This document shows, one piece after another, positions 16,444-25,178 of a stretch of DNA of 64,000 nucleotides; the first letter of the stretch is position 1; every line of letters begins with the position of its first letter. Origin of the DNA: Neophaeotheca triangularis (Eukaryota); NCBI GenBank assembly GCA_054600435.1, contig BAAIJX010000064.1, positions 1 to 64,000 of the forward strand, given 5' to 3'. The notes below the pieces were generated by a model. That model had not been told where the DNA came from. It ran no database searches and worked only from the letters and a program-made list of their open reading frames with translations. A program made the position numbers and the translations under genes.

Positions 16444-17103
16444 ATGAAGGTCTCCATGGTCGTTACCGCCTTGATGGCCGCTGGCGTTTTCGCCGCTCCC
16501 GAGCTCGAGACGAGGACGAACAAGTGCCCCAAGTACCAGGACAAGCTCGCCGAGTGCAGGAAGGAAGAAGTGCAGTGGATCAAGGAGTACAACCAATGCC
16601 AGGCCGGTGAGTAGCGTTTGATCCGAAAACGTATCCCACTTTCACATCGCCGTCTGACTCTCTGAACCCAGACATCCGCAAGCAGCAGGAGCAGTATGAT
16701 GCCTGCAGCCGGGACGAAAGCTCGTACCTCAAGGACTACCAGTCCTGCAAGGTCGAGCTCTCCGGGCTCAAGAACAACTACGACTCTTGCAGGAAGGGAG
16801 ACAGCAAGCACCAGAAGAGGAACAGCAAGAACAAGTGCCCGAACGAGAAGTCCCTGTACGACCGCAAGGACGATGAGTGCGATGACAAGGATGTAAGTTC
16901 CACCATCGACGCTGCGCCCGACTGCTGGGCCTTTATCTTTTCGACGCTAACACTCGGTTCTCTAGGACAAGCACGGTGACAAGTCCAAGGAGTGCAAGAA
17001 GTTGGGCAAGAGCCTGGACAAGGCGAACAAGAAGTGCGAGAAGAAGTTGGACGACTGCGACAAGTACGAGGAGAAGGTCAACAAGTACTGCGGCAGGAAG
17101 TAG
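16444..17103 (+). CDS. Small secreted cysteine-rich protein, 173 aa, 12 Cys (exons 16444-16606, 16672-16892, 16966-17103)
   Basis: Signal peptide MKVSMVVTALMAAGVFA; introns GTGAGT..CTGAC..CAG and GTAAGT..CTAAC..TAG give an uninterrupted frame; strongly C/G-ending codons. Confidence 0.9.
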
Positions 17104-17776
17104 ATACTGGAACATTAGTCGATTTGGACTTCCATTGACTGGCTGATGATGGGCGCTGGAAAATGGGTGACCGAGAGATGGGGTAGTTGGCGACGGTTTC
17201 GATTCTGTCCTTTCCGGTTCAACGGTAAATGTAGTAATGTAGCAATGGTATACGGAACAATCTACGCTTGGCTCATTGCACCGCGTGCTCCCAAGCTACT
17301 TCCATATTATTCGGCTGGGTGGAGCGCCTTGAGGTAGCATCTGAGCTCACGAGTGTGCAGGCTCAGATTCCAAAGCCGAGCGTTGTAGGTGGATCTATGG
17401 GAGTGAGTATGGTTTTGGCTGTTTGCGCGGGGATGAAGACGAGATTTGAGGCTGAGGGTAATTTAGCACGGAGAGATAGAGAAGAACAACGGTAGATACA
17501 TAGCTTCTATACAACGGCCGAATGATGGCAACGAAGACAGATTCATCCCTGCAATTCCGTGCACAAGCTCTAGGGAACCCATGGATTAAAAGCAATGAAT
17601 AGAGGAAATGGCTTGGAGGCAGAAAAAACAGCTTGAGACTAGCTGAACCTACACCTTGCAGACCACTTAACGTTCAGCTGGGATGCCTAAGCACCTCAAT
17701 TTGCCCACAACCAGCTCATGCAACCTCATGCGCCACCTCTGCCAATTCCCTTTCCCAGCATCTTGCACAAAACCCT

Positions 17777-18349
17777 TTACTTTTTGGTCCGCTTCTTCCC
17801 CTTCGATCTCTCTTCGCGCGCTTTCGACCAGACCGTCTTCATAGGCGGAGCCTTACGGTTAGGCGTCGGCGACCCAGCACCCACTGTCAGGAGAGAAAGT
17901 GACACGTCAGTAAGAAAGCTCGTCGACGCAGTCAGGTATGAAACAAATCTCCATTCCGACGTCTGCTCCAGCGTCCCACCACCTCACAACTTACGATCAG
18001 CCGCTTGACTCTTAGCAGGATCATTGATGAAAGCTTGCCAGGTCTGTTGCCTCTCCTCCAAACCCTTAGTCCAAGCCTGTTTTTTGGAGTGTTTAAAAGA
18101 CGCAGCAGGGGGAGTAGGGGCCTCGATCTCCTCCACAGCAGCAGCAGCAGCAGCAGCAACAGAAACACCTTGCTCGACAAAGTCCTCCGGGCGCGGGGCA
18201 CGCAAGCCACCAATCCCCTCAGTGATAGCGTCGAAAGCAGCGTCCCTAGCCTCGGCGGTATTGCCGAAACCATAAATGTCCAAGCCTTGCGCCTTGCGAG
18301 CGAGAGCGGTATCGATATCGTCAGTAGCCAAAGATTTCCAGGGCTTCTT
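17777..18349 (-). other. Candidate spliced C-terminal extension in frame with MSN5 (18349-17995, 17883-17777)
   Basis: Open frame starts at the codon right after the MSN5 TAG; canonical intron 17884-17994; 153 aa. Confidence 0.55.
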
Positions 18350-21300
18350 CTAAGAGCCGAAGAGATCGGCGATGCCTTCGAGAGTGGACTCGTCGCCTTT
18401 GTTAATGGTGGCGGCGGTTGGATCTTGGTCCATTTGCATAAACTGAGCCATCATACCGGAGCGGGCGGCTTTGGAGGAGCGGACAGGAGTTTTGGCCACG
18501 GAGCCGGATTCGTAGATGCTGAGGCCGCGGACGGCTTCAAGAAGGCTGAGCACGATGGCACGTTGTTGGCGCTCGCTGGCCGTTTTGCGGAGCTTGTTGA
18601 GGGCGTCGGTGACGGCCGAGACGCTCATGTTGGGCAGAGACATGAGGATGCGAGCGGGTGTTTCGGTCTTGTCGAAGTAGATGACGAGCATGTTCGCAAT
18701 GACGGTGGCAAGGTCGCGCTGGATGTCATGGAAGTAGGGGTCATGGATGGAAGTGATGCAAGCTTTGAGTACTTCCGTGCAGATAAATTCGCGGACCTGG
18801 GGGGCCGGGGGTGCGTCGTCTTTAAAGGTCGGGATGAGATCGCGGAAAACTTTGGTCACCGTGGTGCAGCAGCGAGTGTCGCGCATTTGGAGAGCGTGGG
18901 TGCAGAACATCATCATTGGTTCGAGGATGGCCGGGTCGGAAAGCACCATGGCGCGAATGGGTGATGGGGGAGGCCCGTTGGCGTGGGCGCCGCTGCCTGG
19001 TTGCTTGCCAAAAGCTAACAAAAAGGGAACGAACGATGTCATGGAAAAGGTCAACTGACGCAGCGTGCTCTCCGTGCGCATCTCATCGGTGAGTTCGTCG
19101 CCCTCGGCTTCACGCTCACCAGCCTCGCGGATAGTATCCCATTCAGCGGTGATCTTGGCATCGAGCTTCGTGAACAGCGCTTTGAGGACCGGCGGCAGAA
19201 AGTGATGAACGTGATGAGGCGGGCAACGACGCACCAGTCCAGTAGTGAGGTTGATGAGATTCTGCAGATGGTTTGTGGAGAGGGCGTGAGCGTCTTCGAA
19301 CAACGCATCAGCCAAGGCGGCGCCAAAGTTCGGCACACCAAAGAACTGCTCCTCAAACGTCGCCATCATGTAAAGCATATGATAAGCATGCTCGCGCACG
19401 TTCCGCGTGGCGCCACGGACTGTCGAAGCAAAACCTTCATACGAGTCCTTGCTCCCAGCCACACGAGCCAAGAAAGCCTCCTTGCTCTCGCTAGTGATGC
19501 CCGACTGCCAGAAGCGATCTTGAAGCGTGCGCTTGAGGACCACTTGCAAGTTGTCAGGGAGAGATTTCCAGCTCCACATGTTGTTGAATGCAGTAGCCTG
19601 CTTGATCATACCAAGCAAGTTCGGCAACATGGCAGGGATAACTTCAGCCCAGAGAGCACAAGCAATCTCGAGCTCTTTGCTGCCTTCTTTCGTCCTTTCA
19701 GTGGAAGCAGCCAAGAGTGACTTGGTGGCGCGCAGGGGTAGCGAAGCGATTCTGTCATTGATGGACTTTTGCTTGGCTTTTCCTGCATCGTTGAGGATCT
19801 GATTGTGCCAATCTTGCACTTGATCAAAGCCGTGCTCGCTGTAGAACTGGGGCAAATCACCGAGATCCAAAGCTTGGCGAAAGGATTCGAAGTCGGACAG
19901 AGCTGAGCTAAGATTTGGATCCTGCCAGGCCTCGTAGACGGGTCGAAGTATATCTTGGAGACGTTGGAGACGCACGTCTTTGGCAATTCCTGCGGCGCGA
20001 TGGATGATGATGAAGAGAAAAGCCCTGTAGCTCCAGATGATCTTAGCATCCTCGCTTAGCTCTTGAACTAGCGTCGCGACCTTCAACTCCAGCTCTCCAT
20101 AGACGTCCAGCAGCGGAGTTGAGAAGATCAACGCCAGCTTCTGCAGCTCCAAGACCCTCAAGTGCTCGAACCCCTTGACAGCTTCCATGTACTTGGCGTG
20201 GGATGGATCGTTGTGCAGTCTTTTCGTAAGAATGTACTGTACGACGTGCAGGACAAACTCATTTTCTGGATTGTGGACAGTCCTGATGATAGCGACCAAA
20301 GTAGCGAGCGTGTGCTGAGCGACTTCCGGATCGTCAATCTGCATGTTACAAATCTCCATAGTCCATTGCTGAAGGTATTGCACGGCAGCAGCTTGAGCCT
20401 TTTCGGCGCTAACAACTTCGACCTGCTCGTCAGCGCTGAGTGCTCCGGAATCCCTCAGCCAGCGTGAATAGCCTTTGAGAGCGGCGGCAACAACGCTGGC
20501 TTGCGCGTCGAGCTGAAGGACAGAAAGCTGAACAGGACTGTACGAGACAGGATCAAAGCCGCGGTCCGTTCCGTACGGTCCCTGTGCAAGCATGCTCTTC
20601 ATCTGCCCAAGCGTAAATTCCAAAGCTTGCACGGGGCGAGAAAGAGAGAGAGTTTCGATGACAGACATGCAGAACCTTCTGTAGTTGCCGATGAAAGCAT
20701 GGCGCTCTGGCGCTTGATCGAAATCTTCATACAGATGCTGGAGAGTCTCATCGTCGGAGTCCTCAGGTAAGACCTCATACCTCAGCAGTCGCTCGCTTGA
20801 AGTCTGAAGGAGAGATCCAAGGTATCCGGCGACGATCTCGACGAGTTTAGGGTTTTGGCATGCGAGCACTTTGGTCCAGCTGTGCAAGACAGGGATGGAG
20901 ACCGTCAAGCTTTTGCTCTGGAGTACCTTTGCCATGAGGTTGAAGAAAGGCCCAACAGGAATCTCGCTATAGATGAGTCTAGGATGAGCGGCAATGCACT
21001 CAGCTAGCATGGAGAGTGCTTCGGACATCTTGGACTGAAGCGTGTACTTGTCGTCGTCGCCACCAGGCGCCGAGTAGGTAATGTCGTACATCGCGTCAAT
21101 CATTTCGACCAAGTTGCTTTGAAAAGTGATGACGACAATATCCTGAGTTGAGCCTTGCAGAGTATCTTCGATGGTAGTGCGAGAGAGAAAGGCAAGCATG
21201 ACTTCTACGACAGCGAGACAAATCTTCACGTCTTTCAGAGAGAACGCTGCGGCCAGTGCCTTGATAGTGTCAGCCTCCAGTACCGACCTGAAATTGATCC

Positions 21301-22126
21301 AGGATGCCGTGGGACGTAGAGCTTGTAGAGCTTTGAGGATGCTCTGGGTATCTCTGGCTTGAATTTGAGGAGGCGAGGCGGTTGAAGACAGGCGCTGGGC
21401 CATGTAGCCGACCCACCAGGTCAGTCTTGACAGCCATCCGCCGTTGACTCCACCATTGTCGTCGGAAGCCCGCACTTCCGCGCTCGTTCCGCGTGTTGTG
21501 AGATGATCCTGAAACACCTTGTCCGTGACCATAATTTCGTTCAAGCTCTTGCCTAGAATATCCAGTCTCAAGCCAGCAGTCGGATCCTCATGCACGCAAA
21601 TATCCTCGGAAAGCATCTCAAGAATGTAACAGACCAGCCACGCGCTCGCCTGCTCGTTGTTGTCCCGCCAAGTCCAGATATCGAGCAGCTCTTTGTCCAT
21701 GTTCATCCACTCCTGACCCCAGCACCTCTTGGACATCTCGACCCACAAGGCGGCGATTTTGTTGCGAAGAAAGAGCGGATCCTGGACACGAATGGTGCCG
21801 GCAAGGACTTTGACCCATTTGCCGAGCTGCGCAATCTCGCCATCCTTGAGCTCAGCCCAGCGGTACTTGACGGAATGCTCCATTAGCTGCAAGCCGAAGT
21901 AGCGCACGGGATCTGGTTCGTCGACGCTGCTAGCGAGGTCGTAGCCGAGGTAGGGTGCGTCATGTTGGGCCTTGATGTTCTCGAGGATGTGAAGGTTCTC
22001 GAGGCGTTTGTTGTTGTTTAGACGAGGAAGAAGACTGGCACGGATACTGCGCTTAACGACTTGGACCTGGTCTTCTTGAGGTTGCGGTGGGTTGTGGTAG
22101 TTGGGGTTGTTGAATTGCTCGTTCAT
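18350..22126 (-). CDS. MSN5: Exportin-5 / Msn5 karyopherin
   Basis: About 1258-aa helical-repeat protein with VRYFGLQLME, FLRNKIAALWVE and LQDRFWQSGI motifs; first ATG at 22126. Confidence 0.88.
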   Translation of the reverse strand: MNEQFNNPNYHNPPQPQEDQVQVVKRSIRASLLPRLNNNKRLENLHILENIKAQHDAPYLGYDLASSVDEPDPVRYFGLQLMEHSVKYRWAELKDGEIAQLGKWVKVLAGTIRVQDPLFLRNKIAALWVEMSKRCWGQEWMNMDKELLDIWTWRDNNEQASAWLVCYILEMLSEDICVHEDPTAGLRLDILGKSLNEIMVTDKVFQDHLTTRGTSAEVRASDDNGGVNGGWLSRLTWWVGYMAQRLSSTASPPQIQARDTQSILKALQALRPTASWINFRSVLEADTIKALAAAFSLKDVKICLAVVEVMLAFLSRTTIEDTLQGSTQDIVVITFQSNLVEMIDAMYDITYSAPGGDDDKYTLQSKMSEALSMLAECIAAHPRLIYSEIPVGPFFNLMAKVLQSKSLTVSIPVLHSWTKVLACQNPKLVEIVAGYLGSLLQTSSERLLRYEVLPEDSDDETLQHLYEDFDQAPERHAFIGNYRRFCMSVIETLSLSRPVQALEFTLGQMKSMLAQGPYGTDRGFDPVSYSPVQLSVLQLDAQASVVAAALKGYSRWLRDSGALSADEQVEVVSAEKAQAAAVQYLQQWTMEICNMQIDDPEVAQHTLATLVAIIRTVHNPENEFVLHVVQYILTKRLHNDPSHAKYMEAVKGFEHLRVLELQKLALIFSTPLLDVYGELELKVATLVQELSEDAKIIWSYRAFLFIIIHRAAGIAKDVRLQRLQDILRPVYEAWQDPNLSSALSDFESFRQALDLGDLPQFYSEHGFDQVQDWHNQILNDAGKAKQKSINDRIASLPLRATKSLLAASTERTKEGSKELEIACALWAEVIPAMLPNLLGMIKQATAFNNMWSWKSLPDNLQVVLKRTLQDRFWQSGITSESKEAFLARVAGSKDSYEGFASTVRGATRNVREHAYHMLYMMATFEEQFFGVPNFGAALADALFEDAHALSTNHLQNLINLTTGLVRRCPPHHVHHFLPPVLKALFTKLDAKITAEWDTIREAGEREAEGDELTDEMRTESTLRQLTFSMTSFVPFLLAFGKQPGSGAHANGPPPSPIRAMVLSDPAILEPMMMFCTHALQMRDTRCCTTVTKVFRDLIPTFKDDAPPAPQVREFICTEVLKACITSIHDPYFHDIQRDLATVIANMLVIYFDKTETPARILMSLPNMSVSAVTDALNKLRKTASERQQRAIVLSLLEAVRGLSIYESGSVAKTPVRSSKAARSGMMAQFMQMDQDPTAATINKGDESTLEGIADLFGS

Positions 22127-22899: not shown

Positions 22900-24507
22900 T
22901 CAACCAAAAGGAAAACCCCCTGGGAACCCACCACCACCACCACCACCCTGAAACTTGAACCCGCCACCAGGGAACCCGCCAGGCCCAGACTGAAACCTGA
23001 AACCGCCGCCTCCGGGGAAGCCTCCAGGCCCAAACGGCGATCCCTGGAACGGAGAACCCTGTTGCCCAGCCATGGGATCATTAGGATCCTCACCGCGGTC
23101 GAAACGCTCCTTGAGTTCCGGATCGCTTAGAACTTCGTAAGCCTCGTTGATGGCCGCCATCTTCTTCTGCGCCTCCTCCTGGGTGAGACCGTGTTGGCCG
23201 GCCTTGTCGGGGTGATGGAGAACAGTGAGTTTGCGGAAGGCGCGCTTGATTTCGCGCTCGTCGGCGTCGCGGCCGACGCCGAGGACTTTGTAGTAGTCCT
23301 TTTGCTTAGAGCGCTTGAGGAGGGTCTGGGCTTTTTGGAGCAGTTCTTGCAAGCGTTGGGAGTTTCCGTTGGCTTCTTTGGCGTGGTTGAGGGTGCCGAT
23401 GCAGGGTTCGAATTCGTCGGCGTCGAGCTGGCGTTGGGCTTTGGAGATGAGGGCGGGGAGGCTGTCAGGGTTGTAGGTGAGGGCTTCGTCGCAGTAGGCG
23501 GCGGCCTTTTTCATGTTGTTCATTTCGGTGTAGGCTTCGCAGGTGCGTTCGATGAGGTGGGCGTAGAGTCCGTCGGATGCTTTCGGGTGGATGTAGCCGG
23601 CTTCGCGCCAGGTTGCAGTGTCGTCTTTGACTTCGGCGAGAAGGCCTGGGTCTTCGTTCTGTGGGACGAGAAGTTTGACTGCCGATGCATATTGCCGCTT
23701 TTCCATGAGCTGGTTGAACTTCTTCAGTGTTCGGTCGATGGCCTTTTGTGATTTGCGTAGCTTCGCGCATTCCTTGTTGTCTGGGTCGTTGTGCAGACAC
23801 TTGGAGATGGCCGTCATGCCCTTGTCGGTTTCCCCGAGTGAGTAGTAAGTCATGGCGGCGATCTTCAAGTGAGGCTCCGTCATGGCCGAAGCGATCTGGA
23901 GGACGTGATTGAGATCCGCAATACCCTCCATCACCTCGCCTTTCTCAAATCGGCATCTCGATCTCCGTTGCCGAATATCCAACGCCATACCCGCAACTAC
24001 GATCGCCGTCCCTGCTTGAGTGACACATGTCTCCCAATCACCGGCTTTCTCAGCATCAGCAGCCAACTTGGCAGCTCCTTCCGCCTCCTCGACATCCGCA
24101 ATCTCCTGCGACCCGATCTTTCCGGCCGCGGCATAATCCGCCTTTGCACCCTCCCAATCGGCAGCCCTCTCCTTCAACTTCGCCCTTTGCGTCAAAGCCC
24201 CCTCAAACCCCGGTTTCAGCACGAGGACCTGATCGAAGTCCTTGGTGGCCTGGGAGTTCCGGCCAAGGGATAGGTAAGTCGCGCCTCGCTTGAAGATGGT
24301 AAGGTAGTTGCCGGGGTCCTTTTGGATGGCCACGTCAAAGTAGGTGAGAGCATCGTGAGCGTTGCCTTGTGCTAGGTTCTCGTTCGCGCTGGATATGAGC
24401 TGAGATACGGGGGTGTCGGTTGGTATGTCGGCAGCCGAGAGGGCGGCGATTGGGGACGCGGAAAGGCAGAGAGCGCCCAGCGCGAGCAACGAGTGCCGGA
24501 GGATCAT
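22900..24507 (-). CDS. ER TPR + J-domain co-chaperone (DNAJC3/P58IPK-like)
   Basis: Signal peptide, TPR repeats, KDYYKVLG..HPDK J-domain and G/F-rich tail. Confidence 0.93.
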   Translation of the reverse strand: MILRHSLLALGALCLSASPIAALSAADIPTDTPVSQLISSANENLAQGNAHDALTYFDVAIQKDPGNYLTIFKRGATYLSLGRNSQATKDFDQVLVLKPGFEGALTQRAKLKERAADWEGAKADYAAAGKIGSQEIADVEEAEGAAKLAADAEKAGDWETCVTQAGTAIVVAGMALDIRQRRSRCRFEKGEVMEGIADLNHVLQIASAMTEPHLKIAAMTYYSLGETDKGMTAISKCLHNDPDNKECAKLRKSQKAIDRTLKKFNQLMEKRQYASAVKLLVPQNEDPGLLAEVKDDTATWREAGYIHPKASDGLYAHLIERTCEAYTEMNNMKKAAAYCDEALTYNPDSLPALISKAQRQLDADEFEPCIGTLNHAKEANGNSQRLQELLQKAQTLLKRSKQKDYYKVLGVGRDADEREIKRAFRKLTVLHHPDKAGQHGLTQEEAQKKMAAINEAYEVLSDPELKERFDRGEDPNDPMAGQQGSPFQGSPFGPGGFPGGGGFRFQSGPGGFPGGGFKFQGGGGGGGFPGGFPFG

Positions 24508-25178
24508 TGTTGCCTGATGTGGAAGAAATGTCTCCAACAGCAAGAGCTGGAGAGGTTAATGGTAGAATGTAGATGCGAGTTCGAAGAGGACAAGTAGGTA
24601 ATGGTAGGGTCCAAGGTTAATATCACACTAGGTACCTGGTACCTTATCGGACAGATGTCCGCAACTACTATCCTAGGTACACACGGACCGACTTCCCCAA
24701 GGGTCACTTCCTTCACGAGTCATGTACCTTACCTACCTGATGAAGTTGCCGCCGTGTACCCCGTGCAACCCATGGCTGTGTCTGTGGCTGGGGTGAAATT
24801 GATTGATCAAGCCACACGGCGTGGAGGTGACGTACGACTCCACCTCGTCGGCGTTGCCGCTTCTGGGAACGCTGGCACCATCATCACCACCGTCACCACC
24901 ACCACGACATCTCCTCCCCTCTCCGTACTCCTAGCGAAAAGTGGTTGTAATTGACAACAATCATTGACCGTTGAGTCTTGATTCCATACCTCACCGAAAC
25001 GACCGCACCCTTCCTTCCATCTTTTCTGTCTGATTTGCAACCATCATAGACTAAACCACCTCGGGACTATCGCCAGAGGCGGGAAAAGCACATGACCCGA
25101 TAAAAGATAATAAAACAGACAAACGCCTCAAGCTCCTCCGGGGCTCTTATCCCCCTTCCCACTCCCTCCATCGTCGAC

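Follow-up and report, generated by a model that had tools for sequence, protein, structure and literature searches.

A protein-coding frame directly behind the MSN5 (exportin-5) stop codon, and the case for a separate small cistron

The reading frame that continues behind the UAG stop codon of a fungal MSN5 (exportin-5) gene is a real, selected protein-coding sequence, a conclusion we draw from codon usage, from the synonymous bias of the differences between two strains, and from one protein relative. We see about an even chance that the 153-aa frame constitutes a small protein gene in its own right, restricted to one lineage, whose translation would start at a near-cognate codon or by reinitiation. 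The original prediction was of a hidden protein extension; the part that stands is that the same three lines of evidence point to coding sequence with a predicted intron rather than to 3' UTR, whereas the proposed conditional tail on MSN5 was not upheld. Throughout, the window is the whole stretch of DNA that was analysed, 64,000 nt in length.

The MSN5 coding sequence (18350..22126, minus strand) is a single ORF of 1258 aa plus a TAG stop. Both Pfam and 116 orthologs, several of which were named by their sources as Msn5, karyopherin or exportin-5, identify it as a full-length member of the Msn5/Kap142/exportin-5 family. The Pfam Exportin-5 family (PF19273) matched residues 359-1201 of 1258 (E 2.4e-83; 281 bits, with a cutoff of 27), and there was a weak Pfam match to IBN_N at residues 48-93. 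The window protein ends ...LEGIADLFGS, and the TAG follows at once (18350..18352, minus strand). This end is typical of the family, whose terminal motif, ...LEG[VI]A.[LM]F(G), is present there, and the stop therefore lies at the family's conserved C-terminus: the chain ends 1-4 residues past the [LM]F in 115/116 orthologs, and the sole exception, P0061, was labelled partial by its source. The closest ortholog, P0005, is 75% identical to the window MSN5 and has the same final residue (...MFGS), and all 60 MSN5 loci examined in metagenomes stop at the same terminal motif. The exportin itself is thus no different here from the rest of its family; it is the extra frame that is absent from all other members examined. 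The best named matches to MSN5 were from the Teratosphaeriaceae, in the Dothideomycetes, and a Sordariomycete match was the weakest of the 116. Contigs from marine metatranscriptomes (X4, X5) and from an air metagenome (X3) fell on the MSN5 coding sequence alone (18503-19298), at a depth of 2.5-8.5, and their absence from the small ORF is uninformative on its expression; the three RNA runs listed contain 0.05-0.08 of the words.

The small ORF follows the MSN5 TAG directly and in the same phase. Its first codons are KKPWKSLATDDIDTALARK..., and exon 1 (17995..18349, minus strand) remains open for 355 nt, or 118 codons plus one base, without an in-frame ATG. The predicted intron (17884..17994, minus strand; 111 nt) has GTAAGT from 17994, a CTGAC branch motif within cttactgac, and a CAG ending at 17884, and contains an in-frame TGA three codons in. 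Its removal would keep the frame: the codon c|tg, split across the predicted intron, gives Leu, and exon 2 (17777..17883, minus strand; 107 nt) consists of the two bases that finish this Leu, 34 codons, and a TAA (17779-17777). These 35 further residues end in the basic tail SKGKKRTKK, bringing the product after predicted splicing to 153 aa, which includes an AWTKGLEER/VWSKAREER pair and a poly-Ala run. No in-frame AUG occurs within the first 132 codons, and the lone in-frame ATG, which belongs to exon 2, is only 21 codons away from the stop. There is no promoter space between the ORF and MSN5. The original prediction had described the MSN5 terminus, the open frame behind it, the intron signals and the frame kept by splicing to the KGKKRTKK end, the late ATG, the paired motif with its poly-Ala run, and the lack of promoter space; all of these were confirmed.

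Two further landmarks lie near the start of exon 1. The first 18 nt (18332..18349, minus strand), AAG AAG CCC TGG AAA TCT, encode KKPWKS and form a stop-free spacer, in MSN5 phase, before the part that is shared with the only protein relative, P0003. The next codon, TTG (18329..18331, minus strand; Leu7 of the open frame), is followed by GCT, aligns with P0003 residue 1, and is a candidate near-cognate start. The first ATG 3' of the MSN5 stop (18271..18273, minus strand) does not share the frame of the conserved ORF; it opens a 113-codon ORF with a poor codon score and belongs to ORF 17932..18450.

The open frame behind the MSN5 TAG is more than chance. A 121-codon open stretch has a probability of ~0.0055 from base composition, and stretches at least as long as the small ORF make up 111/4378 (2.5%) of those counted stop to stop in six frames across the whole window, real genes included. 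Codon scores for exon 1 were 0.413 in frame versus -0.228 and -0.712 in the other frames, with MSN5 at 0.392; in exon 2, which has only 35 codons, the true frame scored -0.229 and another frame 0.186. Comparison with a second strain was made through X2, the one independent run for this species, which leaves 18335-18376 (the TAG and most of the spacer) uncovered. Over the 462 nt of exon sequence the window and X2 differed at eight positions (1.7%), of which six are synonymous, whereas only one of the eight would be synonymous if read in either alternative frame; the probability of six or more synonymous differences out of eight is about 0.003-0.01. Five of the differences are in exon 1 (three synonymous and two not), together with one 3-nt length difference in a GCT repeat, and all three in exon 2 are synonymous third positions. 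The predicted intron carried five differences in 111 nt (4.5%), 2.6 times the variability of the exons.

Run exhaustively against 1,835,955,588 protein representatives, phmmer found one match, P0003 (169 aa; E 2.1e-4), and pairwise BLASTP between this protein and the small ORF product gave an E of 5e-12 with 33-40% identity. P0003 is a stand-alone ORF call, and the similarity starts six codons past the position of the window TAG: query residue 7, the Leu encoded by TTG, pairs with P0003 residue 1 (LATDDIDTALA vs MGTDEVDTALA). Because P0003 comes from prokaryote-style ORF calling, its first M may be ATG, GTG or TTG. It probably adjoins P0005, the closest MSN5 ortholog, judging only by the equal contig figures in the two records (2 contigs, longest 29461).

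None of the 116 MSN5 orthologs has any of the extension, and when MSN5 plus the tail was used as the query no ortholog covered more than 63%, which is MSN5's own share of that query. A tblastn search for the extension likewise came back empty (0/74 loci at E <= 1e-3), as did a profile search for the extension (0/47 loci, best E 1.9), and the in-frame open stretch 3' of the MSN5 stop in 60 metagenome loci was 0-78 codons long and in no case similar. A word-index protein search with exon 1 scored none of 12 near-length and none of 510 longer candidates, and a metagenome scan with small-protein alignment gave 270 pattern matches, of which none was confirmed. Pfam returned no family for either exon product, PDB sequences gave no match to the small ORF product at E <= 1, and the best score in the Atlas cluster search with that product, 0.79, was under the useful range. 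The AlphaFold2 model of the product had a pLDDT of 53.5 and a pTM of 0.22, with residues 1-7 at pLDDT below 50, a quality too low for a fold search. For noncoding RNA in the region or the intron, Rfam had no matches at E <= 1 over 17000-18800.

That the frame is a gene of its own, started at a non-AUG codon, is a case which the original prediction had set against its own claim and is now the reading we favour, given that MSN5 ends where its family ends, that its orthologs are tail-free, and that P0003 is its own ORF call from the TTG position. The coding region of the small gene would then open at the TTG or close to it, 18 nt past the MSN5 TAG and at the point where P0003 begins. Because there is no promoter room between the genes, the small ORF would be read either from a transcription start inside the MSN5 coding sequence or from an MSN5 transcript running on through it, and, because no AUG is available, we propose that the near-cognate UUG (UUG GCU) would serve as the start, reached either by scanning or through reinitiation by ribosomes that had just terminated at the MSN5 UAG; bicistrons with short spacers in Glarea lozoyensis are a model for the latter. 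With an ATG in place of the TTG, TTG-GCT would encode M-A, a typical fungal start context. The product may be a small, largely disordered and helical protein, for which the basic, NLS-like tail suggests a nuclear location. The ORF, the intron signals, the coding constraint, the single relative and the absence from all other MSN5 orthologs and loci are observations, and the separate cistron, its UUG start, its mode of transcription and the nuclear location of its product are what we infer. The phase shared with MSN5 would be a coincidence, expected about once in four cases (a one-in-three chance of the frame, and six stop-free codons).

Several observations count against a separate cistron. The first 132 codons hold no in-frame AUG, and proteins that start only at a non-AUG codon are rare; the base at -3 of the candidate TTG start is T, a poor context; the first AUG that a scanning ribosome would meet (18273) is out of frame; exon 2 scores poorly for codon usage when taken by itself; and a frame that is in phase, stop-free and AUG-less has exactly the appearance of a readthrough tail.

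Parts of the arrangement have precedents in other ascomycetes. The glpks3-glnrps7 pair of Glarea lozoyensis, the system of the IGG1/IGG6 element, is reported to be carried on one transcript with a 26-bp spacer (PMC4471562), and a 9-bp derivative to support termination-reinitiation in yeasts and Aspergillus nidulans (PMC10352335). The window pair resembles these dicistronic pairs in consisting of same-strand ascomycete genes, at most a few tens of bases apart, between which neither a terminator nor a promoter would fit; its spacer, from the TAG to the P0003-aligned codon, is 18 nt, which is within the ~26-nt Glarea-type limit, and contains neither AATAAA nor ATTAAA. In the Glarea pairs, ribosomes go on to translate the downstream ORF once they are done with the upstream one (PMC4471562, PMC10352335), and a single transcript and both proteins have been demonstrated, whereas the window pair is known from sequence alone. 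The Glarea downstream ORF also opens with a start codon, whereas the window has only TTG (18331-18329, in two strains), and a restart at UUG is unprecedented there; moreover, the Glarea partners share one pathway, whereas the window pairs an exportin with an orphan. Neurospora makes use of near-cognate starts, UUG among them, with an activity in vivo reported at under 1% of that of AUG (PMC5487733). The N-terminal extensions of Neurospora cpc-1 use conserved CUG, UUG, ACG or AUU starts, of which the position is kept and the identity varies by lineage (PMC5487733). Those extensions lie upstream of a normal AUG, whereas the near-cognate codon in the window would be the only start of its protein.

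Readthrough of the MSN5 UAG is an unlikely but substantial alternative, in which a near-cognate tRNA would decode the UAG in some ribosomes to yield an exportin-5 isoform with a disordered, basic 153-aa C-terminal tail. It keeps its place because the 153 codons run straight on after the stop, open and in phase, across a frame-preserving predicted intron, and because a tail can do without the AUG start that this frame lacks. The missing promoter space and the coding constraint on a frame that is conserved in one other species also speak for it. An in-phase, stop-free frame with coding-type conservation is equally compatible with readthrough and with a separate cistron. However, the tail is found in 0/116 orthologs, 115 of which keep a free end at the terminal motif; the sequence 3' of the stop is short and unrelated in 60/60 other loci; and the similarity to P0003 starts at a start-type codon, six codons past the stop. 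Besides the fungal motif UGA-CU(A), UAG CAR YYA is another leaky stop context. The MSN5 stop lies in UCU UAG AAG AAG, which matches neither, and in the UGA-CU(A) motif the substitution of UAG for UGA was reported to lower readthrough in Ustilago and HeLa (PMC4207609). Nor was a stimulatory RNA structure seen near the UAG: relative to shuffled sequences, the 141-nt fold gave a z of +1.51 (188/200 shuffles fold as well) and the 60-nt fold a z of -0.33 (74/200). Programmed fungal readthrough isoforms, with UGA CU(A) stops and cryptic PTS1 signals, are similar in that a C-terminal extension comes from an in-phase frame behind the stop. The tails described there are short targeting signals behind UGA-CU (PMC4207609), whereas the window has a UAG-AA stop and a long tail with a predicted intron and no PTS1-type end, and the literature searched yielded no report of a nuclear transport receptor with a readthrough tail that is both long and spliced. 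Overall, a selected exportin-5 extension in at least two Dothideomycete species, produced by readthrough from a non-canonical UAG or by stop-loss editing novel to the class, seems doubtful.

A start-lost relic, in which a former ATG at 18331 became TTG by mutation and the ORF, without useful translation, is now decaying, is rather improbable. The TTG-GCT does stand at the P0003 start position, with no other in-frame start, and the window's small ORF is absent from the proteins on record. The family is also tiny and fast-evolving, its 33-40% identity comparing with 75% for MSN5 and the ortholog from the same species. Yet the TTG is present in both strains, being unchanged in the X2 contig 18076-18334, where both mismatches lie elsewhere, and the 6/8 synonymous differences between these two TTG strains therefore suggest constraint after the start change, albeit from a small sample of eight sites in strains only about 1-2% apart. 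The frame, splice signals and stop are also intact, with the 3-nt difference as the sole length change.

The original prediction had also proposed that A-to-I editing, in a sexual or other special stage, converts the UAG to UGG and so fuses the tail to MSN5; we consider this very improbable. The UAG supplies both bases that editing requires, a U at -1 (trivially true of any UAG) and a G at +1, and hundreds of genes have stop-loss editing in Fusarium graminearum and Neurospora, including 403 in F. graminearum, where the FgDBF2 tail is a degron (PMC11156358, PMC13123824). In the available text of the sources, however, A-to-I mRNA editing in fungi is reported for Sordariomycetes and one Pezizomycete (Pyronema) alone and was not found in A. 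nidulans or Botrytis cinerea, and the Ame1-Tad3 interaction, which enables editing, arose within the Sordariomycetes (PMC11156358, PMC11087585). The best named MSN5 matches, being Dothideomycetes, fall outside these lineages; no report of A-to-I mRNA editing in Dothideomycetes was found in the literature searched, and the available text of PMC13123824 is silent on the class. The A of the UAG also lies outside any significant hairpin loop: in the 141-nt fold the UAG is in an unpaired stretch between helices and not in a hairpin loop, and in the 60-nt fold it is partly paired. Sordariomycete stop-loss tails such as that of FgDBF2, a 24-aa degron, share with the window a UAG followed by an open, disordered and compositionally biased frame. 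The window differs in its fungal class, in the 153-aa length, predicted intron and coding constraint of its frame, and in having a relative that starts behind the stop, whereas published stop-loss tails are described as having low sequence conservation (PMC13123824).

That the TAG or TTG is an artefact of assembly or sequencing, with a longer MSN5 or an ordinary ATG-led gene as the truth, is scarcely credible: the gap in X2 cover does include the TAG and spacer, and the run that best matches the window, X1, may itself be where the window came from, but the TTG is confirmed in X2, and the stop is exactly where P0005 and the family end.

Other gene structures were tried and rejected. Removal of the TAG by alternative splicing would have to use one of 24 GT..AG pairs (45-400 nt) linking an ATG-led frame upstream to the ORF in phase, all of which run from the MSN5 frame and none of which has a CTRAY branch; their donors are GTCATT, GTCATC, GTCTCG, GTCACC, GTGCTC, GTCCGC or GTGGCC, and the only good-looking donor near the stop, GTATGA at ~18457, is out of phase. 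The same GT..AG scan (45-400 nt) gave no ATG exon upstream in another frame. A plus-strand gene, in the 340-aa stop-to-stop ORF at 17942-18964, was judged to be a shadow ORF, with a codon score of 0.11-0.13 vs 0.26-0.41 for the minus frame, and it is the minus frame that P0003 matches.

The small ORF has one relative and comes from a poorly studied fungus, and it has as yet no bearing on a long-standing question. Were it part of Msn5 instead, the karyopherin would carry a spliced readthrough tail of unusual length. If the separate cistron that we favour is correct and the small ORF is translated alone, it would be a conserved eukaryotic cistron without an AUG, 18 nt behind the stop codon of another gene. 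Such a gene would be out of reach of standard annotation, and near-cognate initiation or termination-reinitiation could be tested on it as a natural example from a filamentous fungus.

The MSN5 (exportin-5) gene runs from 22126 to 18353 on the minus strand as a single ORF of 1258 codons (Pfam Exportin-5 PF19273, E 2.4e-83), and its TAG stop at 18352-18350 is preceded by ...LEGIADLFGS. Beginning with the codon right after that TAG, the same frame is open for 355 nt (exon 1 of the small ORF, 18349..17995, minus strand; product P0001) and is followed by a predicted minus-strand intron of 111 nt, from GTAAGT at 17994 to a CAG acceptor at 17884, with a CTGAC branch motif and an in-frame TGA near its 5' end. 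The predicted splicing preserves the frame and adds 35 residues, ending in KGKKRTKK-TAA at 17777; the product is then 153 aa, and its sole in-frame ATG lies 21 codons from its end. The original prediction had described the TAG, open frame, intron signals, KGKKRTKK tail, and late ATG correctly in every respect.

The stretch behind the MSN5 TAG is coding sequence. On a codon log-odds score trained on the window's 11 longest ORFs, exon 1 reaches 0.413 in the proposed frame versus -0.228 and -0.712 in the other frames; MSN5 itself scores 0.392, and its lowest 462-nt window 0.249. When antisense frames are added to the background, exon 1 scores 0.261 and the top plus-strand frame 0.134. Exon 2, at only 35 codons, lends the frame no support of its own, scoring -0.229 in its true frame versus 0.186 in another. 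Sequencing run X2, from another sample labelled as this species, differs from the window at eight exon positions, six of them synonymous and two replacements (A82P and G96A); in exon 2, all three differences are synonymous. Read in either alternative frame, only one of the same eight is synonymous, and the probability of six or more synonymous differences among eight is 0.003-0.0096 when the transition/transversion ratio is varied from 1 to 5. No X2 difference in 17619-18334 was missed because the contig mismatch totals (12 and 2) match the positions listed. The intron has 5 differences over 111 nt and the exons 8 over 462 nt; the end of MSN5, our comparison set, has 12 over 1048 nt, 10 of them synonymous. 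The sole length difference is 3 nt, within a GCT (Ala) repeat of the small ORF (18125-18171) that was flagged in X2 read placement as a repeat with reads apparently cut. From base composition, 121 open codons have a probability of ~0.0055, and stop-to-stop stretches at least that long make up 111 of 4378 (2.5%) over the six frames of the window, real genes counted.

Two word-index protein searches with the small ORF found no relative. An exhaustive phmmer search of 1,835,955,588 representatives returned one protein at E <= 0.001, P0003 (169 aa, E 2.1e-4), whose residues 2-92 align with small ORF residues 8-109; in pairwise BLASTP, the E value is 5e-12 and 35/106 residues are identical. P0003 starts MGTDEVDTALA..., versus LATDDIDTALA... 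in the window, and its residue 1 pairs with a TTG at 18331-18329 (minus strand), 18 nt 3' of the TAG. The similarity fades after P0003 residue 92, matching the intron position in the window, as would be expected of an unspliced ORF call. With the exon 1 codon score and the synonymous differences, this relative bears out the earlier claim of a protein-like, coding stretch behind the stop. P0003 is a single-member cluster recorded on 2 contigs (longest 29461), and the record of P0005, the closest MSN5 ortholog, carries identical figures, from which we infer that the two genes adjoin in their organism too. P0005 (1256 aa, C-terminus ...MFGS) is 75% identical to the window MSN5 overall and 69% in the end region. 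Entries of this origin seem to be prokaryote-style ORF calls: the MSN5 of Aureobasidium, for example, occurs there as 854-904-aa pieces, alongside 1229-aa annotated proteins, and the M of P0003 may thus represent ATG, GTG, or TTG.

In the MSN5 orthologs of other fungi that were compared, the tail is missing. The query was MSN5 joined to the extension, with a W put in place of the TAG for the purpose of the test; residues 1060-1377 were scored, restricted to the 7999 candidates with the most shared words. Among these, 116 proteins matched at E <= 0.001, and none has the extension: coverage of the scored region is at most 63%, MSN5's own share (199/318 residues), and 48-56% in four of them. In 115, the C-terminus lies 1-4 residues past the [LM]F of the motif ...LEG[VI]A.[LM]F, the exception being labelled partial by its source. 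The closest named matches (55-58% in the end region) are Oleoguttula (Teratosphaeriaceae, Dothideomycetes), Elasticomyces, Meristemomyces, and Recurvomyces; Pycnora, which we take to be a lichen genus, stands at 48%, Eurotiomycetes at 43-46%, and the sole Sordariomycete, the weakest match, at 39%. With 15 aligned MSN5 proteins as the query, 74 MSN5 loci were recovered from metagenomes. When the two exon products and P0003 were compared with these loci by tblastn, there was no match at E <= 1e-3 (the best, E = 0.034, sits upstream of that locus's MSN5 stop). At the 60 usable loci, many of them repeats of the same species so that independent lineages are fewer, the in-phase open stretch 3' of the MSN5 stop is 0-78 codons, with one stretch reaching its contig end at 57. 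The best match of a two-relative profile, run against 3051 six-frame ORF pieces within 3 kb behind the stop at 47 of these 60 loci (six had short downstream DNA and seven duplicated kept loci), has an E of 1.9, and in-phase translations at ten loci, the longest stretches included, resemble non-coding sequence. On these negatives, the small ORF is limited, as far as visible, to the species of the window and a single relative.

The surroundings of the locus yielded several further observations. About 670 nt separate the end of the small ORF from that of a convergent neighbor (about 16444-17103, plus strand), which has a signal-peptide-like start, MKVSMVVTALMAAGVFAAP, followed by Cys/Lys/Glu-rich pieces in three frames, suggesting an intron-containing gene for a small secreted cysteine-rich protein. 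Upstream of MSN5, a 551-aa stop-to-stop ORF (22900-24555, minus strand) opens with a signal-like sequence, carries TPR-like repeats and a J-domain-like stretch that includes HPD (...LTVLHHPDKAG...), and has a tail rich in Gly; it presumably resembles ER DnaJ/TPR co-chaperones. A 340-aa stop-to-stop ORF at 17942-18964 (plus strand) runs opposite the end of MSN5 and the small ORF. Its codon score (0.11-0.13) is below those of the sense frames, and we therefore take it for a shadow ORF produced by the high GC content of the coding strand rather than for a gene. In X2, 17430-17648 and 18377-18469 are each represented by paired contig versions of near-equal depth (73.3/71.8 and 60/60.4) that differ mutually at several sites, which suggests either two haplotypes, the genome being diploid or hybrid, or a sample made up of two strains. 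Three contigs from environmental samples match MSN5 coding sequence within 18503-19298: X3 from an air metagenome (585 nt) and X4 from a marine metatranscriptome (182 nt), both with no mismatch, and X5, also from a marine metatranscriptome (221 nt), with two. Those samples thus contained this organism or one very near to it.

The data as a whole are most simply explained if the small ORF is a separate gene, small, young, and fast-evolving, that abuts MSN5: the MSN5 family terminus is kept, the tail is missing from every other ortholog, and P0003 begins six codons behind the TAG, at a start-type codon. The total absence of an AUG fits poorly and is not explained well, as the TTG has a poor -3 context and the first AUG, at 18273, is out of frame. 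According to PMC5487733, near-cognate codons including UUG are in use in Neurospora, with in vivo activity <1% of that of AUG. In Glarea lozoyensis, glpks3 and glnrps7 are transcribed together into a single mRNA, with a spacer of 26 bp between them (PMC4471562); in the window, the putative spacer from TAG to TTG is 18 nt. With a 9-bp derivative of the Glarea spacer, ribosomes that have completed the upstream ORF reinitiate on the downstream one, both in yeasts and in A. nidulans (PMC10352335).

These same features, the lack of an AUG, the poor TTG context, the out-of-frame AUG, and the in-phase stop-free spacer, are also expected of a readthrough tail of MSN5, which we therefore keep as a rival, unlikely yet of appreciable weight. 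The fungal readthrough motif is UGA then CU(A), and UAG instead of UGA lowered readthrough (PMC4207609); the MSN5 context, UCU UAG AAG AAG, differs from it, no RNA structure was found downstream of the stop, and the ortholog data and kept terminus also count against readthrough. That the small ORF is a relic that has lost its start is likewise unlikely, only slightly less probable than readthrough, and accounts other than those named here share a small probability. A-to-I stop-loss editing of the MSN5 UAG is very improbable: according to PMC11156358 and PMC11087585, genome-wide A-to-I mRNA editing is known from Sordariomycetes and Pyronema, has been looked for in Aspergillus nidulans and Botrytis cinerea with no such editing identified, and needs an Ame1-Tad3 interaction that originated in Sordariomycetes, whereas the closest named MSN5 matches include the dothideomycete Oleoguttula; the available text of PMC13123824 makes no mention of editing in Dothideomycetes, and the UAG lies in no significant hairpin (fold z +1.51 and -0.33). 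Sequence error is just as remote. Splicing around the TAG was rejected, as the 24 frame-keeping GT..AG pairs all lack both a consensus donor and a branch motif. Of the conditional MSN5 extension originally proposed, the in-phase coding frame stands, but the tail absent from orthologs, a stop context unlike the fungal readthrough motif, and the lack of a significant hairpin speak against the rest.

The product of the putative separate gene could be assigned neither a family nor a solved relative, and no fold was predicted for it with confidence. Its KKRTKK end matches K-K/R-X-K/R, the pattern of classical monopartite NLSs, a weak indication that the gene may encode a small nuclear protein.
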